Assembly: GCA_038087875.1 (NCBI GenBank)
Contig: CM075995.1
Location: forward strand, 186,001 to 250,000
Origin: Malacoraja senta
Taxonomy: Eukaryota
DNA: 64,000 bases
Direction of reading: 5' to 3'
The notes under the pieces are model-generated. The model was given only the letters and a program-made list of their open reading frames with translations. It had not been told where the DNA came from and ran no database searches. A program made the translations under genes and the position numbers. Shown here piece by piece: positions 4,343 to 34,234 of the stretch (positions are counted from its first letter, which is position 1; every line of letters begins with the position of its first letter).

Positions 4343-4482
4343 ATGAGTACTAAAGTTGATATACCAAAGGGAAAGAAGTTGAACAAATATGGAGAACTGG
4401 AAAATATTGAATTGACTGCAGAAGACTGGATTACACGTTGGGAAAAGAAACACATTGGTTTTCATAAGGATGAAATTCACAG
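4343..4482 (+). CDS. TPMT: Thiopurine S-methyltransferase, first coding exon (MSTKVDIPKGKKLNKYGELENIELTAEDWITRWEKKHIGFHKDEIH)
   Basis: ATG at 4343, acceptor AG at 4336-4337, donor GT at 4483. 140 coding nt. LTAEDWITRW..GFH matches the TPMT LTxEEWxxKW..xFH motif. Confidence 0.92.
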
Positions 4483-4760
4483 GTAAATACACATTTCCAG
4501 ACCGAAAGTTTTTGGAATTGTTCATTTTCCGCATTATCTGCATTGATTAGCAGATTGATGCATTGTTCTTTCAGGTTTAGCTAGCTGTTTCTGCGTGATG
4601 TGGTTATGTTATTTATTTTTTAAACTAATCTCAAAGGATGAGGAGAGTAAGGTGGCATGAGATGAGCTGGATACATTCACAGATAAAATTCTGGTAAAAT
4701 TATCCAGATATATGTTGTTACTGCATCAACATGTTGAGGGCTGCAATAGGTTTAATTTAT

Positions 4761-5551
4761 CGTTGGGTTCCATTGTCACACGGGAGGCCTGGTCCCCCAA
4801 CGCAATATTCCACCACTCGCCCATAGCCCCCAACTGTTCAGGCGCAGCTGACGGGTTCTCGTTGTGACACCCCTGATCCCCCTTCCTCCCCTCCCCCAAT
4901 CCCTCCCTCCCTCTCCTTTCCCCGACCCTCAGTCCCTCCCTCCCTCCATAACTCCTCTCCCCTCCCTACCCCCCTCCTATCCCACTATCCCCCACTCCTC
5001 ACCCCTTAACCCCCCCACTCACCCTCCTCCCCTCCCCCACTTTCCCCCCTCTCCCTCCCTACCCCCTCGTCTCCCTCCCTACCCCCTCGTCTCCCTCAAT
5101 CCCCCTCCTCTCCCTCAATCCCTCCAATCTCCCTCCTCACGTCCCCAGGATCTCGAGGTTGCGGCCGTCGGCTTCAGCGCCCGGCCCCGGTCTCAGCGCG
5201 GTTTCCAGGCTTACGGACTCAGCGCGGCTTCCGGGCCTCCGGCTTTATTCTCTTCACCCCGGTGATTGACATCGCGTGCCGGAAGGGGCGTCATTGTCTC
5301 GGAGAATGACAGGAGAGAAGACCAATCTTGAGACAGAAGAGGGGACCAATCTGCACATGCGCGATTTTTATGAATTTTAAACCTTAATAACATTTGTAAT
5401 ATTCCACCGATCGGAACCCAACTTGTAACACTTGCAGCACAGGAGAATGGCGAGTAAGGTGGCGTAAAATAGTAGCTCTATCGGGTACCGTTTTTTTGCA
5501 AATGTAAAAACAATGCAAACCGGAAGAGCACAAGATGAGAGTTTTAGTTAT
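4761..5551 (-). mobile_element. Truncated Helitron of a related family in a TPMT intron
   Basis: Shares cacacgggagg..tggtcccccaac.caatattccacc and caagat.aga.ttttagt with the 941-3066 element. C-rich low-complexity centre. Termini incomplete. Confidence 0.65.
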
Positions 5552-7579
5552 GGACAGACAGACAGACAGACAGACGGATGTCCTTGCTTCTACATAGGAT
5601 GAGTTTCCCTTGAAGCATTCCATTTATGGGAAAACCATTGTCCTTTTTCTTCTTTTCGTGTCTATCTTGTTACAAATGTTGACCTTGCTGTCATCGTCCA
5701 TCCTGAAAAGGACGCAAGCTTCCGGCGACAATAAGTGGAAGCCATGTTGGTAGCAGAATTAGCTCAGGATACTTCCAGTTTCCAGCCCCGCGATGTTCTG
5801 CTTTGGGGCCACCATTGTCCTGAAAGTGCTTTGATCATTGAATGTTCTTAATCATTTTATATTTCATTACAATGTAATCTTCTTGGCCTGATTTTATAGC
5901 ATGATTTGAACTGTTAAATAATTTAAATGCCAAGTTTAATTTCAGAAAATACCCTGCAATAACTCTGGCCTTGATGTCAAGTATTTGTGCGCTTTAAAAA
6001 TGGTAAACACAGATGTACTGAAATGCCGGGGTTCTCATGAAACCTAACATCAAATAAAACACTTTATGCCTTCAGAACAATAGCAAATTAATGCAGATAT
6101 CTGGTATGATTTGTTTACTCTTTAATCTGTACAGTAATGAGTCAGTACTTTCAGTGTCACTGTGTAGATGTAGAACAGAAATGAAAAATTTATTAGCAAC
6201 CTTCTTCATAGCGTCTTCCAGTGTGGAAATAAGCCCTTTGGCCCAACTTGCCCACACTGGCCAACATATCCCATCTACACTAGTCCCACCTGCCTGCGCT
6301 TGGCCCATATCCCTCTAAATCTGTCTTATCCACGTTCATCAAATTATTATTTTTTGAAATCATGAGCATATAGACAAAACCAACCGATTAATTTTATTAT
6401 TGATATCAGGTTATCAAATTCAATTTACTAACCTGATACCAGTAATATTTTATAATTAGCAAAAATAAAGATATTATGTAGTTCACCTCATTTCAATACG
6501 TTATAGGAGTAGTAGTTCTAGCTTTGCCATAGTGTGAGCTGTGACAATTAGTAATTTGTGCAATGGCAAAATGTTACTATTTGTTTTGTTTAAAACTATG
6601 TCAAAATGTATAACAAATCTATTCCCGCCAGTCTATTACCTAATTGTCATTCTGCAGGCTCCCACATTCCATGAGAATTTATTTTTGTTATTTAGCAGTT
6701 GGTTAACTTAACACTCCATTTATGGCCTTTTGTACATCCCTGTTTTAAATGAACTATCGTTGGTGACTGCTATCTCACTCCTCTGGACTTTGCTCCCTAG
6801 ATCTCTGTACGTGTTTAATAGACAATAGGTGCAGGTGTAGGCCATTTGGCCCTTTGAGCCAGCACCGCCATTCAATGTGATCATGGCTGATCATCCCCAA
6901 TCAGTACCCCATTCCTGCCTTCTCCCAATATCCCCTGACTCCGCTATTTTTAATGTTTTATGTGTCATTCCTAACTGTCACTGTATGTCACTTGCGGGCG
7001 GAGCACCAAGACAAATTCCTTGTATGCGAATACCTGGCCAATAAACTTATTTATTCATTCATTCAGCCACTTCATTTTGCGTGTTGTTAAACTTTGTTTC
7101 TGTAAAGCATCTAAAAGTATTTTACAATGATAAAGGTGCTATACAAAAATGTTATTTTTCATTGAGAATTTTTCAAACTACTGCCCCACAAAGAAGAAAT
7201 AAGAATTATTTATCCAGTTTAAGATTAATTAAATAGAATATTTATAAATGAATACTCATTTGGCATCTGAACTCCGAAAATGCCATTTTTCTATGTTGTG
7301 GGCGTGTGATTTATTTTACTCCACTGATTTCTCCTAACTGTTAATTTCCAAACCTACTTTGCATACTGGCTCTCTTCAAACTTAGGACTCACTGCTCAGC
7401 ATGTTTTGGTGATTTTCATGATTAGAAGTATTAATTCATTGAACCCTATCATCAAATTCTTAACTTGGATGGCTTTATGAAGCTGTTTTAAAAAATAAAT
7501 ATTAATATCCTATTTTAAGTTTTGAATTGTAAACAACTATCAGTGCTTATTTGTTTCTTAACTGATTGTATTTTTATAG

Positions 7580-7672
7580 ATTGTTGCAAAAATACTTGCC
7601 TAACATTCAGAATGGAAGGAAGCAAATCAGCATTTTTTTACCACTTTGTGGAAAATCATTAGATATAAAATG
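7580..7672 (+). CDS. TPMT: TPMT coding exon 2 (RLLQKYLPNIQNGRKQISIFLPLCGKSLDIKW)
   Basis: tttatag|...|gtgagt, 93 nt, phase-compatible with its neighbours. Contains the SAM-binding motif I FxPLCGK. Confidence 0.95.
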
Positions 7673-9000
7673 GTGAGTAAATTCGTGATTGAGAATTACA
7701 TTTTTAAATGTTTGGTAATTATTACTCCAGGTTATATGTTATAAAATCAAAAGGGTTCTATGATTGACTGAGGTGCGAGAGACACACGGTTGGAACACGA
7801 CATGGGTGAGGGTTGGGGTCAGAGGAGGGCAGGTGAGTGGACGAAGGCCGAGGTGAGGTCTGGTCGGGGAATAGTGGGTGTTCAGAGAGGATGAGGACTT
7901 GAGAACTATTGTATAGGTGGGGGGTGGTGGGGTATGCTGGTTGGAAGAGGAGGAAGGTGAAGACCCAATAAAACCACCACTGAGGTTGCCTGTATGGAAG
8001 AGGGTGGAGCTGTAGGACACAGGAGAGCCAGACCACGTTGTGTTGGAATCTGTAGCATGGAGACTGAGTTAGTTAGTTGAGTGTTTCCACAGTTGAGTTA
8101 GTCTCACCTGTCCCATATCCCTCTAAACTTTTCCTATCCACTCACCATGAGTCATTTAAACATTGTTATAGTGCTTCTATTTACGACATTCTCCTGCAGC
8201 TTGTTCCATGTACTCACCACCCTGAGTGTGGAAAAATTGCCCCGCAGGTTCCTATTAAAAAATTTCCCCATCTCACCTTAAACCATGTCCTCTGGTTCTT
8301 GATTCCCCTTCTCTGGGTAAAAGACTCTATGCATTCACCCTATCTATGCCCCCACCTGATTGTATTCACCTCTAGGAGATCACCCCTCAGCCTGTGCTCC
8401 TTTACCATAGAGTATTTAATATGGTTATGTCTTTTCGTTTAAATTTCTGTTAAAGAAATATATTAAGGGTTGCAGATGTTGAATGTACTTTACTGCGCAG
8501 CAGTAATAGCAAAGAAAAGAAGGAATACAGAAAATGGTTCCAGACACATTCCTTTGCACCCTTCTCGCATAGTTTTTTGAAGAGACGTCCCAAGGCATTT
8601 CACATGAGCATTGTGAAAAGAAAAGAAATTTATGGGAGTAAATAACAGAAAGTGCTGGAAACACTCTGGAGGTCAAGCCACCTATTGGGAGAAACTGCAT
8701 GGAAACAGGCCCTTCAGCCCACTGCGTCCATAGCAACCATTGATTGTTCTCACTATTTCTATATTAGCCCACTTTCTCATTAACTTCCTACTTAATAAGG
8801 ACAATTTAGGATGGCCAATTAAGCGACAAACCCATACATCTTTGGGATGTTGGGGGAAACCAGAGCACCTGGAGGAAACCAGGATTGAACCCAGGTATCT
8901 GGTGCTGTGATGCAACAATTTTAACAGCTTTGCCCCTGTGCCACCTTTGTGGAAAGCTAAGTGATTAATGTTCCAGCTGTTACCTTAGCTGCAACATTAA

Positions 9001-10723: not shown

Positions 10724-10856
10724 GCTTCATGACCAAGGACATAATGTTGTTGGTGTGGAAATTTCTAAAACAGCAATTGAAGAATTTTTCACAGAGCAAA
10801 ATTTGTCCTACACGCAGAATCTGGTACCAGAAATACCAGGTGCAGAAGTATTTAAG
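10724..10856 (+). CDS. TPMT: TPMT coding exon 3 ([44 protein letters not shown])
   Basis: ctctag|...|gttagg, 133 nt. GHx[17 protein letters not shown] closely matches human TPMT. Confidence 0.96.
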
Positions 10857-12247: not shown

Positions 12248-14116
12248 TAGCGATGTTACAAAACCTACCATCAGCGGCGCTGTAGATCTGCCACTGCCGG
12301 AATGTGTGATTCCCGAGGCTTTTGGGGGGGGATTAAAATGCAGGTTTGCATTGGTTGTCGGAGAGGGATTTCCGCGGGCTGCTAGCTGATGAAGAAAAAT
12401 CGTTCGGGCTTCGGTTCGTGTTTTTTTTAAATTGCTGGACGATTTAATTGCTGCATTGGTTAAACACGGCTAAAAACGCTTTCAACATTATGGATCGCAA
12501 TATCAGGACAAAACAAAAGGTATGTCGTTTATTTAACATACTATTCTGCTTTTTGGTGTGGTTTCATTTTAATCTTATGATGCGAAAATGTTATTTAGGC
12601 CCACATACAAATTGGCCGTGTCTTGCCTGCCGATATGGGCTTAAATTTATGGCAACGGCAACATTCCAATCGATCACATTCCAGAAACATCCACTCTCAA
12701 GATATATATATTTTTTTGCACAATCATGTCATAAGAACTTCTAAATCATCTATATTTTGTGTTATTGTCTATTCATGATCAATATTTTCATACTAAATAT
12801 CCAGAGTATAGTTTTAGTCAGATGTTTTGTGCAAAAAATAATGATTTTTATTATCTTGAGAGTGGATGTTTCTGGATTAATTTATGGGAATTAAACATTA
12901 AATCCCTTCGATTTGGCACATAAATTCATGACAAAGTGAGATTTATAAAACCATGTGATTTTGTGAATTCTTGTGTGAATGGGATCAGTTTGTTATTTGG
13001 ATACTTAGGCTATTTAATAAATGTAATCTTTTCTTAAGAAATGGATAGATGTTTAGATCTAGTAATTGAATTTAGATGAATATATTTGAGTAGATGAATT
13101 TAATTGATTTGATGAAACTGATGAATATGATTTTTTTGTTGGGTATTTACTATTTGTTTTAGCGTTTAACTTTATCATTTCTACCTTTTTTTCTAAAACT
13201 GCAAATAATAACTTGTTTCTGTTAATGCTGTTCAGTGGGTTTTTTCCTTTGCATTTTAAACGGATGTTTCCGAAGAAGAAATGCAAAATTGTCAATCCAA
13301 ATGCCCAGCAAAAGAGATTGATTTAGACAGCATTCGCAGAGATTATCCAAATTTGGACTACTCCAAATGTGATGATCTACAGGACATTCTTAATGGGAAA
13401 GCAGTGGGCAGAAAGGCATGTCATGCGTGGTTTGAAGATCAAAAACTTGTAGTCTACAATGCCAAAATTGAAAAGTTGAGGAAAAACAAGGTGTACAGAG
13501 TTGCTTATTGGTTACAATCTGAGGAGTATGATGATGCTACTGATTATGATATGCCAATGTACCAGCTAGCAACTGATCTTCTCCATAAAGACTTGGTCCA
13601 TTGCTAGAAATTGTAATTTCTTTACCTATCTGTTATGGACTTACATCATATAATACAATAATATTAAAGTTCTGATCTTGAGAATATCACATCTTTGAAT
13701 TTTCAAGGCAGTCTGGGTGTTTATTACTATTTCCGTCACAACAGTCAATTTTGTAATTAGCTACAATTAGGTAACTAACTAATTATATGCTTTAATTTCA
13801 GGTCATCCAAGTAAAATTTCATATTTGTTTCAGAATGCTTCAATCTATAATAACTGAAAATGTCATTCAGTTCTTTTTAATTTTTAAGAAAGTTATGGGC
13901 TTTTGACTGTCCTCGATCACAGCTTTTGTGTTAAGTCAATGGAAAAGCAATAGGGAACAGGATGCTAATTTCCAAATATGAAAATTGCCATATCTTTTAA
14001 AATACTGAAGATATGAAAGTGAATTAGGTATCAAATTAAAGTTCTTTTTATGCTTTATATGATGGGATAAATTACAGGCTTGATTTAAAAAATCTCAAAA
14101 TTTTGTAACATTCCTA
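12248..14116. mobile_element. Non-autonomous DNA transposon, TAG..CTA ends, 7-bp TSD (hAT/hATw-like)
   Basis: Imperfect 16-bp TIRs TAGCGATGTTACAAAA / TTTTGTAACATTCCTA. TSD CATTGAT at 12241-12247 and 14117-14123. Confidence 0.8.
13281..13607 (+). pseudogene. 108-aa ORF fragment carried inside the DNA transposon; probably the C-terminal remnant of an element-encoded protein
   Basis: Protein-like, non-repetitive ORF in AT-rich DNA, with an in-frame stop shortly upstream. Motif VGRK.CH.W...Y.V.YW...L..DL...DL. Confidence 0.5.
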
Positions 14117-14164
14117 CATTGATATTTGTTGACACAAAAGGACACAAATTGCTGGAGTAACTTA

Positions 14165-15510: not shown

Positions 15511-15934
15511 CTTTAACAGACAGAAGATGTGAGCCAAACGGATTGAGCGATTGAGAATTGGGGGGGAAAAAAATATTTTATTTTATTCCACCCACCATGA
15601 TACAATATAATTTAGACGAACCTCCTTTAGATGTATTTTCCAGTTTTGAATGGCCTTGTTATTTGAAATGCTTCAACCTGCCAGAATATGTTATCTGGGT
15701 AGGAGACAGGTGAGGGAACTGGAGGGAAATGAAGAAATGACATCTGGCCTCGCCTTGTATTCTTTTTGATGACAGAGTTTAGTATTTTTACCCATAGAAA
15801 GGCATGTGCTTGCTAATCAGGCTTTCATCTGACCAAAGGAGTACAATCCTATTGATAATGCAACTGGGTGAGAAGAAAGATCAATTTCAAAATGTATTAT
15901 TTTTGAAGCCAATAATCCTTTTCTTCTATTCTAG

Positions 15935-15987
15935 AGTTCTGATCACCGTATTTCCTTGTACAACTGTGATATTTTCAATTTTTCAAG
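15935..15987 (+). CDS. TPMT: TPMT coding exon 4 (SSDHRISLYNCDIFNFS)
   Basis: ttctag|...|gtgagg, 53 nt. Matches human SSSGNISLYCCSIFDLP. Confidence 0.92.
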
Positions 15988-16983
15988 GTGAGGACTAAAT
16001 TAATTCATAGGTATACAGCATAGGGATGAAGTGCTTCAATTCACAATACGAGCCAACCTTTTTGCCATCTACTGTAATCCTATTTGACCCTATTTTCAAG
16101 AGAGAGTTAGATTTAGCTCCTAGGGCTAAAAAAATCAAGGGATGTGGGTAAAAAGCAGAAATTGGGTACCGATTTTGGATGATCAGCCAGGATGGCGGTG
16201 CTGGCTCGAAGGGCCAAATGGCCTACTCCTGCATCTATTTTTATATGTTTCTATTAGGTCTGTATCTTTGTGTGCCGTGCCTTTTGCAGTTCCTGCCTAA
16301 ATGTCTCTTCCAACACCTCCTCTGGCAGATATCTACCAGTTTAAAAAATAATTTTCCCTTGAATCCCTTTTAAAAACCCTTCCTCTCACCTTAAATCTAT
16401 ACCCTCTTGATCCCCCTCCCAAGTGAAAAAAGATCCTGACCACCCTATCTGTTATTTTTACAATTTTATGTATCTCTCTCAGGTCACCTCTCAGACTCTT
16501 TTACTCCAGGGAAAACAACCCAGTCTACTAATCTCTTCTCATAACTATAGTCCTCTAATCCAGCCAAAGTCTTGGTGAATCTCCTCTGCATTCTCTCCAG
16601 CACAATCACATCTATCCTATCGTGTGGCAATTAGAACTCCAAGACTAGCCTAACCAGCAGTTTCTATTGCTGCAAAATAATGTCCGAATTCTTATGTTGA
16701 GTGCCCTAACCTACGAAGACAAATATGCCACATTTCTTCTTTACCACCCTATTGACCGGTGTTCCCATTTTAAGGGAACAGTGTACTTAGATCCCTCGTT
16801 CTCTGTGTTCATTAACATTCCTTAAGGCCATACCATTAATGACATTACCGAGAGACAGCAGTATTTTTTGGTGGGGTTTTTGCACAGTCAGAAATAGATT
16901 TTATAATGTCAATGCCATATTTTGTTTGATTATTCTATTCCAAAATTATTTTTAAAACATGTATTTTTATTTCGAATGTATAG

Positions 16984-17058
16984 TTTGATTGCTGGAAAGT
17001 TTGATGGGATCTGGGACAGTAAATCTTTGGTAGCGATCAACCCACCTGACCGACAACG
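16984..17058 (+). CDS. TPMT: TPMT coding exon 5 (LIAGKFDGIWDSKSLVAINPPDRQR)
   Basis: tatag|...|gtgagt, 75 nt. Matches human [21 protein letters not shown]. Confidence 0.93.
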
Positions 17059-19295
17059 GTGAGTAGTTTTCTGCTATTCTGGGAAGAATACAGATGCACC
17101 ATAGAAAGCATTTTATCAGGATGCATCACAGCTTGGTTTGGGAACAGCTTCATCCAAGACAGCAAGAAATTGCAACAAAATTACAGCAAATTGTGGACGC
17201 AGCCCAGACCATCACACAAACCAACCTCCCTTCTATTGACTCCATTCATACCTCACGCTGCCTCGGCAAGGCCAGCAGCATAATCAAAGACAAGTCGCAC
17301 CCTGACCACTCCCCGCTCCCATCAGGCAAACGGTACAGAAGTGTGAAAATTCACACCACCAGATTCAGGGACAGTTTCTTTCCAGCTGTTATCAACCAAC
17401 CACAACCAGAGAGCAGTGCTGAACTACTATCTTCCTCTTATAGGACCCTCGGACTATCCTTGATCGGACTTTGCTGGCTTTACCTTGCACTAAACGTTAT
17501 TCCCTTGTCATGTATCTCTGTACACTATAACTATAATCATTTATTGTCTTTCTGCTGACTGGTTAGCGTGCAACAAAAGCTTTACACATGACAATAAACT
17601 AAACTGAAACTGAACTGTATTTCAGCTGAATATGAACAAAATCACAGAACAAATAAGACATTACATCTTTTGTGAATCAATTTACATTTTAAACACCATT
17701 AATGCTTGTAATAGCGTAAGTTACGGGGGTTATCTTGGGTCCCCACACTTGAGTTCGCGATTAGCTTATCTCCCTCACTATCAGCCATGATATACTTTGT
17801 TTCAGAACACAATTGTGAAGCACTCTGAAGGAATGCATTTGAATTCTGTTTAGCATTTCCAGGAGAACATAACTTGGATCAGAAAATGTAGATGGTGACC
17901 TTGCCAACTCACATTCTTCTTACACCACGAATTGCATATTAGCAGCATTGATATATTAGCCCATGAGAATGTAGCTTTTTTTGTTAAAATGTATTTAAAA
18001 AATGCAATTTAACAAAAAAAATATTTAAAAAGGGGGGGGGGGTCAAATTAGGCGAGTTCTGATGGAAAGTCATTCATCTATAATATTAACATTTGCTCTC
18101 TTTACAAATACATACTCTTACCACATTATATTTCTGACCTCAAAGCTGTGGTACTTTCCTCCTCAGAAGATATAGCTTTATAATAAAGAAATAGATATAG
18201 CATGTCAGATTTTTTTTTTAAATGATGTCAACATTTACCTTGGGACAGGCTAGGCTATTTTGTTTCTGGAGCCTAGTCCATCATGGGATAATTCAGGATA
18301 TGTGACCTAAATCCTGTTACCCACTCTTACACTGTGTTTCTTAACACCTTCAATTATCAAAAATACTTCAAACTTGAATTCAAAATCAATAATCTGCACA
18401 GCATCAGTTGCCATTTGCAGATATGATTTCGTAATTTCTATCACCCTCTATATATAGAAATATTTTCCAACATGACACGTGAAAAGCCTAACTCCAATTA
18501 TATCATAGTTGTACTAACTTCCAAGCCTAACTAGTTGTAGTTATAATTGTACTGTATCTCCCAACATCGGCCAGCTACAACTGGAAAAATAGATTGTCTC
18601 TATCTGCCCTTAACATATCCTTCAGATAAATTATCCCTTAATTGTCCACATTTTATGAATTGCAACTCTGTGTCATTCCACTTTGTAAATTAATCCTTGG
18701 AGTTCAGTTATGTGTCTGAATGTGGTTCAACACACTATTGCTAACGTTTACTTTTATTGATAATTAAACCTTAAACATTTTATTACAATCAAGAATAAAT
18801 TAGATTTCTACTCTAATTGTTATATCCATATACTTGTTTACCGTTGAAAAGAAAGGCTTAAAATTATGTCCCCTTCACAACTCATGATATCCAAGCTATT
18901 TTATGGCCTTGGTTGTGTGATTTAATATTATAATGTAAAAATTGTGATTATCTTATTTTTACACAATATGCTTCTTAACCTGGATGTCAGGATAATCCTC
19001 AGCAATGCAAACTATTGCTGGATCTTTTATTCTAGTTTATTTTGGTTGTGTATGTGTGGGGGGTGGGAGAAACATGTTTTTGGTCTCTTCCTTCGGGGGG
19101 ATGCGACCTTTTCTTGTCGTATCCCCCGTCTCCGTCTCCGTCTGCGCTGAGGCCTAATGGCGGAGCTGGCGGCCTCCAACTGGGACTGACCTCGAGGCTC
19201 CGGAGGCAGAGCCAGGACTTACTAACGCAAGGCTGGCCGACGTCCGGGCCGTGGTGGCACTGCGGCGGCGGCCCGATTTCGGAGCCTCGGAGGCT

Positions 19296-19600
19296 CAGCG
19301 GTGGCGCAGTGGTAGAATTTCTGCCTTACAGCGCCAGAGACCCGGGATCGATCCCGACTACGGGCGCTGTCTGTATGGACTTTGTACCTTCTCCCCGTGA
19401 CTGCGTGGATTTTCTTCGAGATCTTCGGTTTCCACCCACACTCCAAAGACGTACAGGTTTGTAAGTTAATTGGCTTGGTATAAATGTAAATTATCCCTAG
19501 TGTGTGTAGGGTAGTGTTAATGTGTGGGTATCGCTTGTCGGCGCAGACTTGGTGACCTGAAGGGCCTGTTTCCGTGCTGTGACTCGAAAACTAAAACTAA
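19296..19600 (+). mobile_element. tRNA-derived SINE (other copies near 35192-35500 +, 48011-48630 +, 51023-51320 +, 56885-57130 -, 63509-63738 -)
   Basis: Pol III A-box gtggcgcagtggtag and B-box-like gggatcgatccc, shared core gttc/cttctccccgtgac, LINE-like tail (ctaaa)n. Confidence 0.8.
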
Positions 19601-19815
19601 AAGGGCTTATTTGCTTGTATGGCAGTAGCTAACCTCAAGAAGTTATTAAATTGGCTTTACAGAAATTTGCAAGGTGATAAATCTGCTCTCTCTTTGTTAA
19701 AGGTAAACTTAAGGAAGTGAGAAACATGGAATACATGCATGAATGTTTGAAGTAGCGACTGTGTAAATTGGTGGTTCAAATTCACACTTCTTTAGGAATG
19801 CTGCAATGCTGTTAA

Positions 19816-19998
19816 AGGGCCTGTCCCACTTGGGCTTCATTTGCAAGCCACACAGATGGCGCGCAAAGATTTTGTACATCCCAAAATCTTGGGGCACCGC
19901 GCGCGACCGCGCATCACTGCCTACGTCACCACGCACGCGTAATGCGTAAACGTGACGTGTAAATGATGCACAAATGACGCCCAAGTGGGACAGGCCCT
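19816..19998. mobile_element. PIF/Harbinger-type MITE
   Basis: TIRs AGGGCCTGTCCCACTTGGGC / GCCCAAGTGGGACAGGCCCT, TSD TAA. Confidence 0.8.
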
Positions 19999-21411
19999 TA
20001 AGTATATCATTGACCATACACAGATACTGTGAGACAAAGCCTGACTGGGACACAAAGTGTTAGAGTAACTCAGCGAGTCAGGCAGCATCCCTGGAGAAAC
20101 GAGCATCTGAAGAAGGATCCCGACCCAAAATGTCACCTATCCAGGAATACTGCTTGGCCCACTGAGTTACTCCAGCACTTTATGTCTATTTTAGTAAGTC
20201 GGAATCTGCAGTTTCTTGTTTCTAAAACTTGACAGTGCTTCAACTTTATAAACACCAAGTTCCCCACGTACCCAAACATTAAAGTTTGCCTTAAAGCTCA
20301 TTTTACTTCCTTCAATATGCAATATCATGGCATTCTCATTGTCAAGAGAGTCAAGAGTAAAGAGTGTTTAATCATCATATGTACCGACAACAGAAGTGAC
20401 ATTTCTTCCTTCTGCTGCCTTCAAACATGTTTGAATGACAATAAAAGAAATTCAATTCAATTATAAACTCACCAACACCATAACACACAAATAAATATGT
20501 AATAAAATAATATATTAGTAACAGTAATACTACTTATCATGTATCTGTACACTGCAAATGGCTCGATTATAATCTCTGCTGGCTATGTACAAGTGACAAT
20601 AAACTTACTGAACTGAACTACTAGGATAATAGCAGTATTAGTGCAACCAAATAGCGCAAAATATCGAAGTCCGCAGTGCAACCAAAAATACAATCCATAG
20701 AAGATCCTGGTTGTTGAGGTAGTGGTTAGTATTGTGCAGTGTTCAAGAGCCTGATGGTTGCGAGGAAGAAGCTGTTCTTGAACCCGGTGGTCATGGTTTT
20801 CAGGCTCCTGCACCACCTTCTTTCCGATGGTAGCAACGAAATGAGAGCATTGCCAGGGTGGTAAGAGACTTTGGTGATATTGGCTGCCTTCTTGAGTCAA
20901 CACGTCCTATAGATCCCTCAGTTGGTGGGGTGGTCTGTACTCATAGAGACACAAAATGCTGTAGTAACAAAGCAGGCCAGGCGCAGGCATCTCTGGAGAG
21001 AACAAATGGGTGACGTTTCGTGTCGAGACCTTCTGTACCTGTGATGGAATAGGCAATGGGTTCTTCCACACCAAAGTATCAAGTCAAAACCACAAAAATG
21101 GATTATGTTGCCATATGTTTGTAAGGTTTCTTGAGTGGCGCTGCAGAAACAGATGCAAGACACTTCAAATAAATTAAAATACACTTCAAATAAATAAAAT
21201 AAAGCCTTCCAGTTCACACGTTCCTTGCACCAGGAAGTGCAAATTTATGTATTGTCTTTCCGATGACTGGTTAGCACCCAACAAAAGCTTTTCACTGTAC
21301 CTCGGTACACGTGACAATAAACTAAACTGAAGATGGACACAAAGGGCTAGAGTAACGCAGCGGGACAGGCAGCATATCTGGAGAGAAAGAATGGGTGACG
21401 TTTCGGGTCAG

Positions 21412-22925
21412 ACATAGAAACATAACATAGAAAATAGGTGCAGGAGGAGGCCATTTGGCCCTTCAAGCCTGCACCGCCATTCATTGTGATCATGGCTGAT
21501 CATCCACAGTCAGTAACCCGTGCCTGCCTTCTCCCCATATCCCTTGATTCCGCCAGCCCCTAGAGCTCTATCTAACACTCTTTTAAATTCATCCAGTGAA
21601 TTGGCCTCCACTGCCTTCTATGGCAGAGAATTCCACAAATTCCCAACTCTCTGGGTGAAAAGGTTTTTTCTCATCTCAGTTTTAAATGGCCTCCCCTTTA
21701 TTCTTAGACTGCGACCCCTGGTTCTGGACTCCCCCGTCATTGGGAACATCCAGCTTGTCCAGTCCTTTTCTCATCTATTGGTATTGAGGGAGTGCAGTGT
21801 AGGTTCACAAGGTTAATTCCCGGGATGGCGGGACTGTCATATGCTGAGAGAATGGAGCGGCTGGGCTTGTAAACTCTGGAATTTAGAAGGATGAGATGGG
21901 ATCTTATTGAAACATATAAGATTATTAAAGGTTTGGACACGCTAGAGGCAGGAAACATGTTCCCGATGTTGGGGTAGTTCAGAACCAGGGGTCACAGTTT
22001 AAGAATAAGGGGTAAGCCATTTAGAACGGAGACGAGGAAATACTTTTTCACACAGAGAGTTGTGAATGTGGAATTCTCTGCCTCTGAGGGCGGTGGAGGC
22101 CAGTTCTCTGGATACTTTCAAGAGAGAGCTTGAGAGGGCTCTTAAAGATAGTGGAGTCAGGGGATATGGGGAGAAGGCAGGAACGGGGTACTGATTGTGG
22201 ATGATCAGCCATGATCACATTGAATGGCGGTGCTGGCTCAAAGAGCCGGATGGCCTACTCCTGCACCTATTGTCTATCCTTCTAAATTACAGTGAATACA
22301 AGCCCATTCTTTCCAATCTTTCCTCATATGATAGTCCGGCCATCCCATGGATTCTCATGAACCTACGCTGCACTGCCTCAATCACAAAGATGTCCTTCAA
22401 ATTAGGAAACCAAAACTGCACACAATACTCCAGATGTGGTCTCACCAGAGCCCTGTACAACTGCAGAAGGACCACTTTACTCCTATACTCAAATCCTCTC
22501 GTTATGAAGGCCAACATGCCATTACCTTTCTTCACTGCCTGATCTACCTGCCTGTTTACTTTCAGTGACTGGTGTACAAGGACACCCAGTTGCACTTCCC
22601 CTTTTCCTAATCTGACACCATTGAGATAATAATCTGCCTCCTTGTTCTTGCCCCCAAAGTGGATAACCTCACATTTATCTACATTATACTGCATCTGCCC
22701 ACTCACTCAACCTGTCCAAGTCACCCTGCAACCTCTTAGCATCCTCTTCGCAGTTCACACTGCCACCCAGCTTTGTGTCATCTGCAAATTTGCTCGTGTT
22801 ATTTTTAATCCCATCATCTAAATCATTAATATATATCGTAAATAGTTGCGGCCCCAGCACCGAGCCTTACGGCACTCCACTCGCCACTGCCTGCCATTCT
22901 GACAGGAACCCATTTATTCCTACTC
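21412..22925. mobile_element. Nested CR1 3' fragments in alternating orientation (-, +, -)
   Basis: Minus copy at about 21412-21770 and 22277-22925, interrupted by a plus copy at about 21780-22276. CR1 RT C-terminal motifs in ORF 22287-22706. Confidence 0.8.
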
Positions 22926-23186
22926 AGACCCTTCTACTCAACTCAAAACGTCACCCATTCCCCCTCTCCAGAGATGCTGCCTGTCCCGCTGAGTTACTCC
23001 AGCACGTTGTGTCTTTCTTCGGTTTCGACCAGCACCTGCAGTTCCTTCCAACACATTTCGTGAAACTAAACTGAACTGAAATCAAGAGTATTGGGAAAAG
23101 AGATTTGGAAGGGATGTTAAGGTGGACCTTCTTCCCCCAGAGAGATGGTTGCTCGAGCTGTGGGGAGACATCTCTGCATGCTCAGC

Positions 23187-24419
23187 TCAGGGCACCTCGG
23201 GAGCGGCGTAGATCTTGCATGTGTGGTCTCCGCTGTCCAACACCACCAGCTCGCCGTCAGCGGTGCACGCCAGCCCCGCCGGCCGGACCAGGCCCTCGGC
23301 GATGAGGACTCGGTAGCGGAGGGTTCCCGCGGCGATGCCCTCCACAAGACCCACCGTGCCCCCCAGCCCGTCGGCCACCAGCACGTTGCCTCGCCCGTCC
23401 GCGGCGATGGCGGAGAGGCCGGCGGGGAGCCGGGCCGGGCTGAAGACGGTGCTGTCGAGTTGGCGGATGAGTTGGCGGCGGCTGTTGAAGGTCTTGAGGC
23501 GGATGCAAGAAGAGGAGGAGGAGGAGGAGGAGGAGGAGGAGGAGGGTGGGAGAGGTTGCAAATGCTCCACCACGTGGATGCAAGAGTGTAGCTGGCACAC
23601 GGCCACCTCCCGCGGACACTGCAACCCCTCGCTCACGGTGTCGGTGCTCAATAAGCCGCCGCCGGGCAGGTGCAGGCTGAGTAGCAACAAGGTACCTCGC
23701 CGGGCGTCGGTCACAGCCACCTGGTCGGAGCCCGGACCGGCCGCCACTCCCCAGGGTAAAGCCAAGTCGCCCTGGATGATCTTCGGGCCCGGCTTTTGGC
23801 TCTGTCCCAGGGCGAACACTTTGAGGGACGAGTCCCCGCCGTCGGCCACCACCAGCAGCAACCCACCGCCGGCCAGCGCCACACCCAGCGGGTACAACAA
23901 GCCGCTCAACCCGGAGGCAGCGGCAGCGGCTGCGGGCTCCAGTGAATCCTCCTCTTCTCCCCGCTCCCACAGCCGCAGCGGGCGGCGGGGGTCGTCGTCA
24001 GCCACGGCCAGCGCCCCGGAGCTGGGGCAGACAGCCAGCGCCCGGGGGTTGAGCAGCTTCCCCCAGCCGCCGAGCACGGCCGTGAGCCGGGGCTGAGTAG
24101 TGAGGGGACACGGGCTGCTGCTGCTACCGCCGTTACCGCCGCCCTCGGCCACCGGGCTCAGCAGCTCCGCCAGCTGCAGCAGAGGCAGGCAGTCGGTGGC
24201 TTGTGAAGCCGGCCCGCAACGCCGACAGAACGGGCACTGCAGCAGCTGCCGCCCTCCGTGGGACAGGGCCCCGGCGCATTGGCGGCACACGGCGTGGCCG
24301 CAGGGCAACACGCAAGGCCGGCGCTCCGCGCTGTCGCTGTAGATCTCCAAACACACTTTGCACTCCAGCACGTTGAGCTGGATGTCCCGCAGGAGGCTGC
24401 TGGCGGCGAGCAGGGACAT
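23187..24419 (-). CDS. NHLRC1: E3 ubiquitin ligase malin (RING finger + NHL repeats), intronless CDS, 410 aa
   Basis: RING CKVC..RRPCVLPCGHAVCRQC..CPFCRR, then GGWGKLLNP and NHL-type repeats (YPLGVA, PWGVA, PAGLA). GC/CpG-rich. Next to TPMT and KIF13A as in human. Confidence 0.95.
   Translation of the reverse strand: MSLLAASSLLRDIQLNVLECKVCLEIYSDSAERRPCVLPCGHAVCRQCAGALSHGGRQLLQCPFCRRCGPASQATDCLPLLQLAELLSPVAEGGGNGGSSSSPCPLTTQPRLTAVLGGWGKLLNPRALAVCPSSGALAVADDDPRRPLRLWERGEEEDSLEPAAAAAASGLSGLLYPLGVALAGGGLLLVVADGGDSSLKVFALGQSQKPGPKIIQGDLALPWGVAAGPGSDQVAVTDARRGTLLLLSLHLPGGGLLSTDTVSEGLQCPREVAVCQLHSCIHVVEHLQPLPPSSSSSSSSSSSSCIRLKTFNSRRQLIRQLDSTVFSPARLPAGLSAIAADGRGNVLVADGLGGTVGLVEGIAAGTLRYRVLIAEGLVRPAGLACTADGELVVLDSGDHTCKIYAAPEVP
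23508..23543 (-). repeat. (TCC)10(TCT)2 coding microsatellite giving Ser12 in NHLRC1
   Basis: Read directly: aga aga (gga)10 on +. Confidence 0.95.
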
Positions 24420-27400
24420 CGGCCTGGAGGTGGTGGAGGGAGGACTTAATCCAGAAAGGGTTTTTGGGAAGAAAGAGCTACCTTAAATGTAGTTGCCTCC
24501 CCACCACCTCTCCTTCAACTCAGCCGCCCTCACCCACGTCTTCTGTGCAGGAAGGAACTGCGGGTGCTGCTTCAAAAGCGAAGATATAGACACACACACA
24601 AGTAACTCAGCGGGACAGGCAGCGGCTCTGAAGAGAAGGAATGGGTGACGTTTGGGATCGAGTCCCATCACTGACGTCTTCTTCTGGCCACGGGCCCCAC
24701 AAGCCAGACCACATGCAAGAGCCTGTCAGCGGTACCGTGAGCCTGCCTGCTGGGGCTGGCACGAATTACACTCCTTGTTCCTCTCCGGTTCAATGCATGT
24801 CAACGAAACACGCAAGGGAAATGGTGCACAGCAAAGACGGAGCAAAAATAAGAATCCATAATTTAAAAAAAAAGTAGAGGTGCTGACTATCTTTTCTTCC
24901 ACTTGTTCCTTCTGCCTGGTTATAAGATCACATAGACACAAAATGCTGGAGTAACTCAACGGGACAGACAGCATCTCTGGGTAGAAGGAATGGGTGACGT
25001 TTGTGGTCGAGACTCTTCTTCAGACAGATGGTCTTAAGATCAGATTCTCCCAAGATGTAGAACATATATAGTACAGCGCAGGAACATGGCTTTCGACTAC
25101 AATGTCTGATAATGCCACGATAAACTGCTTGCTTTCTGGCTCCACTTTAGTCCCACCATCCTCGTCTTTTGGCGCTTAGTTCGTAGGGAGTGTGTAGAAC
25201 AGAAGAAGATAGAAACAAAGATAATAGGTGCAGGAGTAGGCCATTCAGCCCTTCGAGCCAGCACCGCCATTCAATATGATCATGACTGATCATCCAAAAT
25301 CAGTACCCCGTTCCTGCTTTTTCCCCATATCCCTTTATTCTGTTAACACCAAGAGCTATAGCTAATTCTCTCTTGAAAACATCCAGTGAATTGGCCTCCA
25401 CTGCCCTCTGTGGCAGAGAATTCCACCTCTGGGTGAAAAAGTTTTCCCTCATCTCAGTCCTAAATGGCCTCCCCCTTATTCTTAAACTGTGACCCCTGGT
25501 TCTGGACTCCCCCAACATCGGGAACATTTTTCCTGCATCTAGCCTGTCCAATCCCATTAAGAAGATGTCTTGATCGGTTTGTTCCAGGGCCTGGCCAAGC
25601 TGGCCATTCGTGGGTTACGTCGCCAGGCAGAGGGCGGCTCTGCCTGAGCTGACTGCTGGCCCCTTTCCCCTTTCCTTGAGAAAGAACACACAACGCTCAC
25701 GAGCACCACAGAGGATTTCCGAGACCGCTGGGCATAGTAATAAGAATATTTGGTGATTTTTCTATTATTATGGTGGTAGGTGTGTGTTTTTGTTTGTTTT
25801 GTCAATATTATTGTAAATAATTGGATAAATTTAGTTTTGATTAAAAAAAACTAATTAAATCTGCCTGCACATATTTTATAAACCTCCTCCCCCCCCATTC
25901 TCTACATATTTATGTACATATCTAATGCTTGTTAAAACCACTATTGTATTTGATCCACCGCTGCCCCTAACACACATTGCAGGCACCCATTAATTTACCC
26001 TCTTTAAAAAAAACACATGTCTCCTTTAAACTTTGCCCCTCTCACCTTCATGCTATGCCAATGTTGGTGCATTGGGAAAATGTGTGAACTCCACAGACTG
26101 TATCAGAGGTCACGATTGAATCCAGGGTGCATAGAACTGTGAGGGGAAGATACAGATTGCAGAATATAGTTCTCAACATTGTCGTGCACCAGTTCCAGAG
26201 TCAAAGTCTAATGACAACAATGGGGTAAAGGTGAATTGTACTAGCTTATGGAAGGACCGTTCAACAGCCTGATAACGGAGGGGAAGAAGCCGTTCCTGAG
26301 TCTGGTGGTGTGCGTTTTCAAGCTTCCGTACTTTTTGCCAGATGGGAGCAGGGAGGACGAGAAATGACCAAGGTGGAACTAAGTCTTTGGTTATATTAGA
26401 AAGACACAAAATGCTGAAGTAATTCAGCTGGTCAGGCAGCATCCTTGAAGAACATGGATAGGTGGCTAGAAAGGTGGCTTTCCAGGTTAGCATCCTTCAG
26501 ATTGATTATATTGGCTGCTTTTCTGAGGCTGGCGATGTGCAGATAGAGTGGGGAAGAGTCTGGTCTGTGTGATGGTCTGGCCTTCACCTACAACTCTCTG
26601 CAATTTCTTGTGATCTTGGGCAGAGCTGTTCCCAAATCAAGCTGTGATGCAACCCGACAGTACACTTTAGGTTAAATAAATTATTTTAATCATCATAGTA
26701 AACTCTTCTCAATACCTGAGATTTTGATCACTTTCAAAAATACTGCAAAGGTGATCTGTTGATTTAAATTCTGCTTCTGACATTTACCATGCACACATGG
26801 CCCTCAATCCAAGCATGTTTGATCTAACAATACAAATGTTTTACAAAATGCATAGAAACAAAATCATAATCACATTCTGCATTCTCCCTTCAGAGAAAAA
26901 TAGAATCTTTGTTATCATTTAATCCATCATTTTAAAAACATTTAAATAATTCTGATATACTTCATACTTCCTATTCAAACAAACCAGTGTTCAAAACCTA
27001 ATCCAGCATCAGTGAGATGAAATTATCTAAATTCTCAAGAAAGAAAGGTATGATTTTTCAAGTCATTAATAAGATGAACCCAGCACAGTTAAGGAATTAT
27101 GAATTATTATGAATGTTTTCCACACGCATTTTGTGGGACACCAGTAGCACCGTGCTGAGTATTTCACGATTGTGAAAATCTACGTTTAGAGCCAAAAGTG
27201 GAAATATTATGAGAGTTGATTCAAGGTGGGTTGTAAAGGAGTGAGAGATTGAATATTCAGAGTGGTAATTCAAGTGCTGGGCCATTTTAAAGATGTGGTC
27301 CCTTATGGTGATATCATAGGGGCTGTCACTGGAGATTAAAAGATGCAGAATTTGGGAGGTATACGGTTAGGTTTAGGTTTATTATTGTCACATGTACCGA

Positions 27401-27953: not shown

Positions 27954-27974
27954 GTGTGTGTGTGTGTGTGTGTG
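27954..27974. repeat. (TG)n microsatellite
   Basis: gtgtgtg... read directly. Confidence 0.9.
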
Positions 27975-28720
27975 TAATTGATGTCAAGTACAGAATTTGA
28001 GTCAAGATTGAAGATAATGGTATTCTTTGCTAGTCCATCTAACTATTGAATGCATTTTGATATATAAATAGAAAGCAGAGGGTTTCATAGCAGTGCTATA
28101 GAGGGAAAATTGTGTGTCATTGAGATATGGCAGATGGCCTTGTGTTATAATGCTTCCGAAAGGCAGGAAGTTGTTGAAAACGACAAAGACCAGGGACATT
28201 TCAAGTAACCGTGCACAGCTAGGAAGTGAAACCAATGAAGCAAATATTCCAGAAGTAACTAAATAAATGGTATGGACTGGAAACTCCATTGAGTATGAAA
28301 ACAAAAGGGGATCCGTTGAATGAAGATGTTGCAGTAGAAAATGCCAATACAGTAGAAAAATGAGCTCAATTGGCCATCAAATCTGAATGGCCTGTTGTTA
28401 AAGAAGGAACTGCAGATGCTGGAAAATCGAAGGTACACAAAAATGCTGGAGAAACTCAGTGGGTGCAGCAGCATCTATGGAGCGAAGGAAATAGGCAACG
28501 TTTCGGGCCGAAACCCTTCTTCAGACTGATAGGGGGTGGGGAGAAGAAAGGAAAAAAGGAAAAAAGGCGGAGGAGGAGCCCGAGGGCTGGGGGATGGGAG
28601 GAGACAACCAGAGAGCTGATGAAGGGGAGGGGACAGCAAGGGCTAGCAGAATTGGGAGAATTTATGTTTCTCCTGTTTATGTGCTGCCTGTGAGGCCTGT
28701 TTATGTGCTGCAAATGGTAT

Positions 28721-31700
28721 TTCTTTTTTTTTAATTTTTTTTTAAAAATATTTTTATTTTATTAGAAGTAAGTACAATTGTATACAATCATATTTTCATA
28801 ATACCTTTTATGTACAGCTTCTTATTTAAAAAAAAATTTGAAATAAAGAAGAAAAAGAAAAAAGTTAGATAATGAAAAATAGAAAAATGTGAGATATATA
28901 GTGTGTGAAAAAGAAAAATAAAGAATGAAATAAGAAAGTTGAGACATAGAAAATAGAAGAAAGAGAATAAATGAAAAGAAGAGAAGAAAAGAAAATAGAA
29001 GGAGATCATTTATAATCTTGACCATCCGCAGTCACGGATTAGCTTTTACACCTGTTTTGCACCATACGTTTCCAAAAAGACGACAAATGGAGACCAACTC
29101 GTTATGATTTGGTCAAATTTATCTATTAGGAGGAATCGCATTTCCTCAAGATGTGCGGTATCCAACATACTTGCAATCCACATTTTGAGCGTTGGTATTG
29201 GTGTATTTTTCCAAAATTTCAATATTAATTTTTTTGCTATTATTAAACCATAATTAAAAATTGACTTTTGAGATGAGCTCAATTTGTTCCCGTCTTCCAT
29301 TACCCCAAATATAATCAATTCATTATTGGGTTCCATTTTTGTCTTAAATAATTTTGTAAATATTTCGAAAATATCACTCCAAAATCCATGAAGTTTTATA
29401 CAAGAAACAAAAGAGTGTGTTATAGTTGCTTCTTGGATTAAACATTTATCGCAAATGGGCGATATATTTGGATACAATTTATTTAATCTTGTTTTTGAGT
29501 AATATAATCTATGTAAAATTTTAAATTGGATTAGATTATGTCTTGCGTTAATCGAACACTTGTGAATTTATGTCAAATACTTTTCCCATGTAGCCTTCGT
29601 AATTTTTATCAATAATTCCCGTTCCCACTCTTCTCTAATTACCTCGGTCACAGGTAAATCTATATTTAAGATACTATTATATAAATATGCTATTAATTTT
29701 TGTGTATCAGCTTTTATATTCATTACTTCTTCTAGTAAATCAGGAGTTATTTTTTGATATCCCTGTATGTATGTCTTCAAAAAATTACAAATCTGAAAAT
29801 ATTTAAAATAATGAGTGTTTTTCAGTTTAAATTTTAATTGTAATTGTTGAAATGATAATAAATCTCCCATTTCATACATATCCCCGATCCTTTTAATTCC
29901 TAAACTTTCCCATTGATTATATATTTTATCCATCATAGATGGTTTAAATAAAGGATTATTCGCTATCGGTGTTAACAATGATAGGTTTCTTAATTTTAAG
30001 GATAGTTTTATTTGTTTCCATATTCTTATTGTATCTTGTATAATTGGGTTTTTCTTATATATTGTATTGTTCATTTTTTTCGGGGAGAAGAGGATTGTTC
30101 CTATATTACAAGGATAACAATCCTCTTTCTCCATTTTTATCCATTCTGTCTGTTGAGTTGAACTATCCAACCAGTAAATTATATTCTTAATATGTATTGC
30201 CCAATAGTAATACAAAAAATTAGGGAGTGAAAGTCCCCCGACATCTTTTGGTTTACATAAGTGTTCTTTTTTAATTCTATGTGATTCGTAATCCCAAACA
30301 AAATTAGTAATATTAGCATTCAGTTTAGAGAAGAAATATTTTGGTACATATACTGGTATAGATTGAAATAAGTATAATAACTGTGGTAAGAAGCTCATTT
30401 TAATAGCATTTATTCTGCCTATTAATGATAAAGGGAGTGTTTTCCAAAATTTTATCATTATATTAAGTTTATTTATTAAGGGTATAAAATTAGCATTGAA
30501 TAAAGCTTTATGTTTTCTAGTAATCTGTATACCCAGATATTTGAATTTTTCTGTTGCTATTTTAAAGGGGAATTTCAATAAGTGTGTGGATTCTTGAGGT
30601 TTTAACGTCATAATTTCACTTTTGTTCCAATTTATTCTATATCCTGAAAAGGACCCAAATTCCTCTATTAAATTTAATAAATTTGGTATACTCGTTTGTG
30701 AATTTGTTATATATAACAAAATATCGTCTGCATACAATGAAATTTTATTATTTGAGTCCCTAGTATTATAACCCTGAATATTCGGATGGCTTCTTATACT
30801 TTCAGCCAGAGGTTCTATCATAAGGGCAAATAGCAGGGGTGATAAAGCACATCCCTGCCTATTACCCCTTGATAATTGAAATTTTTGAGATAACATGCTG
30901 TTAGTTAATATTCTTGCCATCGGTTTATCATATAATAATTTCACCCATGCAATAAAATTCTCTCCCATATTAAATTTTTGTAATACTATGTATAAATACT
31001 GCCATTCTACCTGATCAAATGCTTTCTCTGCGTCCAAAGAAATAATTGCTAAGTCTTTTTCTTCCTTTTTATGTGAGTACATTATATTAAACAGGCGTCT
31101 CAAATTATTAAATGAATATCTTTTGGGTATAAACCCCGTTTGATCAGGGTTTATCAATTTACTAATATATTTGCTTAGTCTTCTAGCTAAGGTCTTTGCT
31201 AGAATTTTCTGGTCGGTATTTAAAAGTGATATAGCTCTATATGAACCCGGTTCCTCTAGATCTTTATCTTTCTTTGGAATAAGCGTAATAGTTGATTCTG
31301 CTAATGTTTCAGGTAATTTATTTTCTTTAAAAACGTGAGTATATAAATTAAATAGATCGGGGGTCGTTATCTCATGAAACTTTTTATAGAATTCATTACT
31401 AAAACCATCTGGTCCCGGTGTCTTACCATTTTTCAGCAATTTTATTGTTTCACCTATTTCTTCGATTGTAATTTGCGCTCCTAGTTCTTCTTGTTCCAAA
31501 AGGTCAAGTTTTGGTAGATTACATTTATCTAAAAAATTTGTAATTTTACTATCTTCTGTTTTGGTTTTTGATGTGTATAAATTCTGATAAAATTGAACAA
31601 ATCTTTTATTGATATCTTTAGGTAGTGTTAGTAATTCACCATTCTCAGATTTAATTTTATTTATAGTATTTTCCTTTTCCTGTTTTTTCAATTGACGCGC

Positions 31701-33426
31701 CAACAGCTTATGTGGTTTGTCACCAAACTCAAAATGTTCCTGTTTTGTAATTTGGAATAATCTTATTACTCTTGCCGAGAGAATTCGGTTAAGTTTAAAT
31801 TTCAGTAGTATTATCTTATTATGCTTATCTATAGTGGGATCTTTAGCATTATCTAACTCTAACTGTCTTATTTCTTGTTCTAACAGCATCTGTTCAGTTT
31901 TATTCTTATTTTGAAAAATTTCATATGAAATTATAATTCCTCTAATAAATGCTTTAAAAGTTTCCCATATTAAAGAAGGTGAGGTACCTGGTGTATCATT
32001 TATCTCAAGAAATGATATCATTTGTTGTTTCAAATATTGATAACCCTGTAGGTCATTTAATATATATGTGTTAAACCTCCAAAAAAAATTCTTTCCCGGC
32101 ATTCCTTCAAATTTTACTAAAAAAGTCAATGGAGAGTGATCAGAAATACTACTAATATGGTAAGTTGGGTTAATTATATATGGCATTAATTTTCTATCCA
32201 CTAAAAAATAATCAATTCTTGAGTATGTTTTATGTACCGAAGAGTAAAACGAGTATTCCCTTCCTGCTGGGTTAGCAGATCTCCATACATCTGTTATGTT
32301 AGTATTTTTTATATATGTATTTAGAAATTCACTAGTCTTAGATTTTGTATTACTCCTTCTTTGTTTTGCTGATTTGTCTAAGTAAGGATCTAAAACACAA
32401 TTGAAATCCCCTCCTATTATGACATTTTGATAATTAAACTCCAGTATTATATCTATAATTTTCTCAAAAAATTGAGGGTTATCAAAATTCGGAGCGTAAA
32501 TATTTACCATAGTTATTGGGGTAGCATAAATTTCTCCCGAAACTATAATATACCTTCCCTCTTTATCTGATATAGTATTCTTTAATTTGAACGGTATACC
32601 TTTTCGAATAAGAATAGCCGTACCTCTAGATTTAGAAGTAAATGACGAATAATATGTTTGGCCTATCCACTTCGCCTTTAATCTCATTTGTGTTTCCTGT
32701 TTCATGTGAGTTTCTTGCAAGTAGATTATGTCGCTTTTCAAAGATTTTAGGTGAGCAAAAATTTTACCCCTCTTTATTGGTTCATTGGCACCCCTTATAT
32801 TCCAACTACAGAATGTGATTCCTCCATTCTTTATTTGCCTATCGTCCTGCATTGTATATCAAAGTGATGTTCTTGAAACATATGGTGCAAACAAATACCT
32901 CCGTGTTCTGGACGTTGGGTGGTCATTCCAAATTTTTAAGTTTACATTACATCTCCATCTCCAAAAGTGCCTTAGATAAAGCAAGAAAAGTTGTGATTTA
33001 CAATTAATTAAGTGATTTTTAAAAAAAAGTGAAATTAAGGTATCTAAAAGCAGGTACCTTAAAGACAAATAGCCACCTAAGGTGGCGAAAGAATTATAGA
33101 CTTCCTTTGATGTTATTTTACAGTGAGCCCCAATCCCTTATTAACACCTCGTAAAAAATAATTTAAAAAAAAACCTACAAACCATCTCGTTTATTCTTGT
33201 ATAACTTTATCAAACTAGCGTTAGTAAAATGCCCCCCAAAAAATTAATTAAAAAAAAAAATATATAGTAATAATAATAATAATAATAACAAAAATATGCA
33301 AAGATAAAATATTAAAGAGTTAAAAAAAAAAAAGAAAACATTAATGTAATTAAACCCCAAATCCAAATATAAACCACAACCTATTCTAATTTCTATAAGT
33401 ATTTGTACTGTACCAATTTATCTAGC
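28721..33426 (-). mobile_element. 5'-truncated L1-clade LINE with nearly intact ORF2 (APE endonuclease, RT, C-terminal Cys/His region)
   Basis: ORF2 32852-29046 with one in-frame TAA at 29570-29568. Motifs SWNIRG, YLQETH, GGDFN, SDH, LDAEKAFD, QGCALSP, YADD. A-rich tail. 16-bp TSD GTGCTGCAAATGGTAT at 28705-28720 and 33427-33442. Confidence 0.93.
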
Positions 33427-34127
33427 GTGCTGCAAATGGTATATGTGGAATGTAATATTCCATGGAAAGAAAGTCAAAATTGATGCCATTTCCGATTCTG
33501 ATTTGAACCTTTCTGGTACCCGATGCAAAAATAGATCTCTGCAATTATAGAGTTTCAAACATGAAAACGGTATGGTTGGGCTCAGATCTGGGAAACACAT
33601 GAAAATAAAGCTCAGTTGAACTTGGGGTGAGGGTTTGCAAGATTGTCAATGGTCAAGATTGGGTTGAGTGAATATGTGGAAAATTATGTTTGAAAAGGAG
33701 GTTGATGGAGTAAATATTCGCGCTAATGAATGCAGTATTACTTAAAACGAATTTGGTGTGTGTAGATCCATAAAAAATACACACAGAATATCCATAGAAA
33801 TTCTGCGACAACATGATTCAAAGCCCAGTTTTGGTCACCTTAGATTCACTTAGCTTCTGTCATTGTATGAAGGACATACTGGAAAAACTCAGATCAGCCA
33901 GCATTTGTGGCAAAAGGAATTGTTAATATTTCAGGTTGAAAACCTCATTCATTGTAAGTGCAGAGTTCTAATTATAGATGCTGAACCTGAAATTCGACTC
34001 CTTTTCCCTTTCCACATATGCAGTTTGACCTGCTGAGTTTTCCCAGCGTTTTCTGGTTTTTATTTCAGATTTTCAGCATCTGCAGTTTCCAGATCTTGTA
34101 CGAAGGCTAGGACTGTGCATTGGTCTT

Positions 34128-34234
34128 TTACTTAATTAGATAGATTTCTTCAATGAAGGAATCCAGACCCCACGAAATCTGTTGCTCAGTCATAGCATCC
34201 AATGATTCCATCAACCGAATGTTGCATGATTGGC
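34128..34234 (-). CDS. TPMT: TPMT terminal coding exon, on the minus strand ((G)QSCNIRLMESLDAMTEQQISWGLDSFIEEIYLIK*)
   Basis: Minus-strand acceptor ttctttgcag|GC, 107 nt ending in TAA. Aligns to the human C-terminus [34 protein letters not shown]. Confidence 0.88.

Follow-up and report, generated by a model that had tools for sequence, protein, structure and literature searches.

A 64,000-nt stretch of the assembled genome of the batoid Malacoraja senta (positions 186,001 to 250,000 of contig CM075995.1, assembly GCA_038087875.1; hereafter the window, numbered from its first letter) carries the gene TPMT in two pieces: coding exons 1-5 lie on the plus strand, the terminal coding exon (exon 8) lies on the minus strand beyond an NHLRC1 gene, and exons 6-7 are missing (Table 1). 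A local mis-orientation in the assembly is the probable explanation, in which case the split would not be a real feature of the genome, with a chance of our being wrong that falls only somewhat short of even. The animal would then possess the ordinary collinear order, with NHLRC1 after TPMT exons 1-8; the assembly would have reversed in place a block of 14.7-18.8 kb comprising the end of intron 7, exon 8 and NHLRC1. The wrong end of this block would have met intron 5, through a misjoin at a contig tip or through the mis-orientation of a small contig with its left join closed; exons 6-7 would sit in sequence that was left unassembled and for which the gap stands. We favor this explanation because the exons show no decay, a close relative has a full-length protein, and the block is short and ends at the only gap. 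The likelihoods attached here to the different explanations are matters of judgement, with very little reserved for any other than those weighed below.

Table 1. Positions of TPMT exons, neighboring genes and structural features in the window
Feature	Position	Strand	Details
TPMT coding exon 1	4343-4482	+	140 nt, ATG start; GT donor; 43/46 aa identical to P0002; Pfam TPMT E 0.021
TPMT coding exon 2	7580-7672	+	93 nt; AG/GT; 29/30 aa identical to P0002; Pfam TPMT E 9e-4
TPMT coding exon 3	10724-10856	+	133 nt; AG/GT; 42/44 aa identical to P0002; PDB TPMT 2bzg E 2.6e-13
TPMT coding exon 4	15935-15987	+	53 nt; AG/GT; 15/17 aa identical to P0002
TPMT coding exon 5	16984-17058	+	75 nt; 24/24 aa identical to P0002; intron read-through stops immediately
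Orientation-switch interval	17059-21242		gapless; exact site not found
Nested retroelement stack	21243-23153		collinear throughout; target-site duplications argue against a breakpoint inside
NHLRC1 (malin)	24419-23187	-	single intact exon, ATG to TGA, 410 aa, RING + NHL
TPMT terminal coding exon (exon 8)	34234-34128	-	107 nt; pyrimidine tract and CAG acceptor; TAA stop; 31/34 aa identical to P0002
LINE-like element, 3' end, young	35517-35896	-	contig ends inside; 92% over 382 nt to copy at 42847-43228; element type assigned by eye
Assembly gap	35897-36096		200 N, only N run in window; predicted site of exons 6-7 and of the second junction
KIF13A-type kinesin, last two exons	53816-52737 and 50239-49955	-	3' end faces gap

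The pieces were measured against P0002, a complete 243-aa TPMT that was one of three proteins returned by a search with exon 3 and that matches the TPMT structure PDB 2bzg with an E-value of 7e-68. P0002 is known only from Logan contigs, the longest of them 2,623 nt, and since it is whole within a contig this short it probably derives from a spliced transcript. The first-pass annotation, made from the letters of this DNA, had placed exons 1-5 on the plus strand and the terminal exon on the minus strand, and its coordinates, splice sites, phases and stop all hold. The internal boundaries of exons 1-5 are AG/GT throughout, and their phases chain to a cumulative 494 nt across four introns of 996-5,078 nt. 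Its statement that no exon shows decay was likewise borne out: there is not one stop, frameshift or lost splice site in any of the six exons, and what is present of TPMT here is not a pseudogene. Read-through from exon 5 into intron 5 meets a stop immediately, giving a product of 165 aa.

Taken together the six exons are identical to P0002 at 184 of 195 residues. For every one of them P0002 gives the top score among the 16 aligned proteins, the pattern of a single TPMT orthologue, and the next closest are the electric ray Narcine and then the sharks. Exon 8 (tblastn E 5e-16) shares 31/34 residues with P0002, 26/34 with Narcine, 20-23/34 with the main shark and chimaera copies, and 16/34 with P0020, the second paralogue of the catshark. 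It also shares the early C-terminal stop of P0002, where the other cartilaginous-fish proteins in the alignment run on (the sevengill shark P0052, an isoform whose end differs, says nothing on this exon). Its divergence from P0002 does not differ detectably from that of exons 1-5 (31/34 versus 153/161; Fisher p 0.41). As exon 8 is closest to P0002 and no more diverged than exons 1-5, the pieces belong to one gene and not to two old paralogues in opposite orientation, a pairing that we reject on the exon 8 identities and the shared early stop. Full-length orthologues are annotated in Narcine and in eight other shark or chimaera species of the alignment.

Five exons of one gene on one strand and the last on the other do not form a collinear chain, and between them 131 nt of coding sequence are absent (732-494-107). 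The two intervening exons had been reported to lack a match on either strand, and six-frame comparison and tblastn with P0002 residues 166-208 agree across the called bases of the 64-kb window, the part beyond the gap (36097-64000) being included in the six-frame comparison. The best ungapped scores of the exon 6 and exon 7 pieces were 27 of 156 and 27 of 77, as against 80-245 for the six real exons, whose own next-best matches reach 13-37. The missing length equals 86+45 nt, the human sizes quoted in the first-pass annotation for these two exons, and exon sizes in this member of vertebrate TPMT (PF05724; PDB 2bzg) thus agree with the human ones given there. On the minus strand only 1,662 nt of contig sequence lie 5' of exon 8 before the gap. 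Given the lengths of the measured introns, exons 6-7 would be expected to escape detection in a block that is flipped and cut short by the gap; if the block is flipped, they probably fall in the gap region, and their absence is thus not separate evidence of gene loss.

At two positions facing the substrate, human TPMT differs from the gene in the window. In both the window and P0002, human Arg152 aligns with Ser (window 17015-17020, exon 5) and Arg226 with Gln (exon 8), and both arginines are replaced in Narcine as well (Ser; Gln or Leu across the three), while Arg152 is kept in 13 of the 13 other aligned proteins. According to PMC7705256, no polar residues other than the equivalents of these arginines lie near 6-mercaptopurine in the mouse TPMT structure. 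Judged by these replacements, batoid TPMT may have a changed substrate or lower activity. The literature searched held no report on TPMT in skates or rays, most subscription papers lying outside its coverage; the part of the thorny-skate supergene paper to hand (PMC11772779) draws no link to this locus, and the five supplementary files searched contain 0 matches for these genes. Within intron 3, an insertion holds a 115-aa open frame (13260-13607, plus strand) with a weak Pfam match to DUF7447 (E 0.24), probably a transposon remnant, and two minisatellites precede the gene (48 bp x 10.3 copies at 1239-1722; 31 bp x 13.5 copies at 2226-2678).

The point at which the orientation switches lies in continuous sequence: as had been claimed, no gap falls between 17058 and 23187. 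The flipped block is the terminal piece of its contig and ends in a retroelement at the gap; it thus adjoins a contig end, as a mis-oriented piece would, and that end (35896) is inside a repeat. Self-comparison resolved 21243-23153 into a cluster of long interspersed nuclear elements (LINEs) flanked by a 6-nt duplication, itself inside a palindromic element flanked by a duplicated 12-nt tail. With the flanks of these nested insertions still paired, a breakpoint within this stretch appears to be excluded. The space outside repeat blocks that could hold the breakpoint amounts to 2,235 nt (1,683 of them at 17616-19298 and 33 at 23154-23186), a figure to be read with the proviso that removing repeat blocks still allows a break inside a small simple repeat. 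Two candidate breakpoints can be named there: a hairpin with 21-bp arms at 17976-18020, and the boundary 19298/19299, where a GC-rich repeat stretch abuts a 5'-clipped short interspersed nuclear element (SINE).

Several other leads to the breakpoint gave nothing. Self-comparison of the window found no long near-identical inverted repeat flanking the block from within the candidate interval, though the second breakpoint may be in the gap. The inverted LINE pair at 21807-22277 and 37989-38429 was rejected as a breakpoint pair, its left arm belonging to the collinear stack and to a many-copy family. No element cut in the candidate interval has its continuation in 36097-38000 or elsewhere in the window. 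T-versus-A skew is positive in all four TPMT introns (+0.08 to +0.11) and at 18401-19300 (+0.13), then falls below zero at 19301-21320 and over most stretches further right, but we rejected it as a breakpoint locator, as a minus-strand LINE fills 20347-21063 and 17601-18400 is flat (+0.01). A search of sequence runs with 15516-24543 gave partial matches in 23 of the 24 listed runs, with shares of 0.69 and 0.67 of the words in two runs of one study and no RNA run among the holders listed; it was uninformative on the junction and was not used.

Errors of the kind we propose are well documented. In PMC9668749, nearly all good human assemblies carry 1-25 misorientation errors and over half carry 1-9 chimeric contigs, and the mis-orientations and gapless chimeric joins of long-read/Hi-C assemblies resemble the present case in that a short reversed block touches a gap and splits an intact gene. 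They differ in that the errors treated there are attributed to long flanking segmental duplications, none of which is visible at the junction here. The case for mis-orientation must also contend with several other observations. No Ns interrupt the assembled junction, and of the space that could hold the breakpoint three quarters is single-copy within the window. Around the block, the strongest inverted repeat measures about 470 nt at 86% and lies inside the interval excluded as a breakpoint, leaving no obvious repeat to mislead a long-read assembler. A gap at one end is also what a real heterozygous inversion would tend to produce. Moreover, P0002 comes from a relative and not from M. senta itself. 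Finally, for HG002, PMC9668749 gives 30 of 41 testable between-haplotype inversions as real; the 11 errors had long segmental duplications on their flanks, and none of these is seen here.

Much of this would suit a real inversion, recent or polymorphic, with breakpoints in TPMT intron 5 and downstream of NHLRC1, the latter in or near the gap. We hold this to be a serious possibility, though clearly the less likely one. The inverted allele would yield only the 165-aa product, without the C-terminal third, and would be null, because the stop in intron 5 is immediate and a direct join of exon 5 (ending in phase 2) to exon 8 (starting in phase 1) is out of frame; it would probably be carried with an intact allele. 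In favor of such an allele are the immediate stop after exon 5 and the TPMT nonsense alleles carried by living people (PMC7705256). An inversion gains further from the gapless junction in mostly unique sequence, from the lack of a long repeat to cause a misjoin, from the 30 to 11 balance of real cases over errors in HG002, and from the hairpin, the like of which appeared in 0 of 40 Markov simulations of the interval. Set against these are the adjoining gap, the undecayed exons, and the fact that four of the five such hairpins in the window lie outside the interval. In our judgement, gene-breaking inversions are also rarer per genome than local errors in repeat-rich assemblies of non-model species. 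The human F8 intron-22 inversion provides the natural parallel, in which the 5' and the 3' exons lie on opposite strands and all of them are undamaged. It arises between kilobase-long near-identical inverted repeats, whereas no such pair was found here, the second junction lying outside the available sequence. Were the arrangement real, a batoid TPMT in which both substrate-contacting arginines are replaced would be in the course of being lost through a segregating inversion of exons 6-8 and NHLRC1, caught before decay; we advance this only tentatively.

A third explanation, which we consider improbable, is a recent inverted duplication, in which a truncated plus-strand copy (exons 1-5) would face a near-identical complete copy on the minus strand whose exons 1-7 have collapsed into the gap. 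Sharks offer a precedent of sorts, as in both the catshark (P0011/P0020) and the sevengill shark (P0008/P0052) two diverged TPMT-like genes share a chromosome, judged by the equal length of their contigs, and near-identical inverted copies are generally known to break assemblies, which would explain the gap. However, no second copy of any TPMT exon is present in the 64-kb window, and the gap would have to conceal at least about 15 kb of gene together with a promoter. Of the paralogues that the first-pass annotation had entertained, the old ones fall by identity and only a very recent duplicate survives, at this low probability. Its other alternatives, a recent inversion or an artefact, are those to which the evidence leads, and its suggestion of trans-splicing is very unlikely. 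A fixed inversion rescued by joining a plus transcript of exons 1-5 to a minus transcript of exons 6-8 would suit intact exons on opposite strands and has an insect precedent in Drosophila mod(mdg4) (PMC4667647), but it is scarcely credible here: it requires a promoter 5' of exon 6, exons 5 and 8 do not match in phase unless exons 6-7 come between them, far simpler explanations fit, the available text of that paper offers no vertebrate case (the word 'vertebrate' has 0 occurrences in it), and the mod(mdg4) arrangement is conserved with verified joined mRNAs, as opposed to a single assembly, known from DNA alone, whose relatives have full-length proteins.

NHLRC1 lies on the minus strand between exons 5 and 8, its frame intact with both RING and NHL parts. 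Exon 8 and NHLRC1 are co-oriented within the block, as the first-pass annotation had described TPMT and NHLRC1 to be in human, and a turtle gene model in which TPMT is fused to NHL repeats (P0058) supports this co-orientation as ancestral and kept inside the flipped block. The NHLRC1 product has a poly-serine tract encoded by a GAG repeat (11.3 units, 23512-23545) as well as low-complexity stretches rich in Gly and Ala. Of the 187 pattern matches from a metagenome scan with NHLRC1, 0 were confirmed. Between NHLRC1 and exon 8 lies a long, decayed, AT-rich L1-like retroelement (about 28700-33200, minus strand) with the YADD motif of reverse transcriptase, and a related fragment occurs at about 43300-44200.

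Beyond the gap, we read the kinesin as KIF13A-type because the first 130-200 residues of its large exon match KIF13 proteins that lack a CAP-Gly domain, whereas long KIF13B-type proteins match the CAP-Gly part only. It retains at its C terminus a CAP-Gly domain (Pfam E 9e-9) that is divided between two exons, an arrangement common to the relatives P0087-P0090, P0097 and P0101, and the ESM Atlas returned only generic CAP-Gly clusters, all under 0.9. This domain is said to distinguish KIF13B from KIF13A (PMC9081326); its presence in a KIF13A-type kinesin is probably ancestral, with loss in some lineages. The 3' end of this KIF13A (in 36097-64000) points toward the TPMT/NHLRC1 block, the opposite of the human order, in which TPMT, NHLRC1 and KIF13A lie on one strand with the 5' end of KIF13A adjoining NHLRC1. 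Of this arrangement, PMC8310580 confirms no more than that the three are neighbors. One large inversion would not account for the order in the window. KIF13A may face NHLRC1 in batoids generally; alternatively, the contig on the far side of the gap may be reversed as well, or there may have been an older rearrangement.

In sum, the pattern resembles both known assembly mis-orientations and known gene-breaking inversions, and its meaning depends on which of these it is. Trans-splicing is the sole explanation that would come as a major surprise, and nothing supports it over the simpler ones. If the assembly is in error, the outcome is a curation fix, for annotation would otherwise wrongly record TPMT as truncated or lost and put NHLRC1 on the wrong strand. 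If the inversion is true, a cartilaginous fish would carry a natural null allele of TPMT. This would add a fresh case in which an inversion causes gene loss, and it would help in asking what role TPMT plays in animals that never encounter thiopurine drugs.

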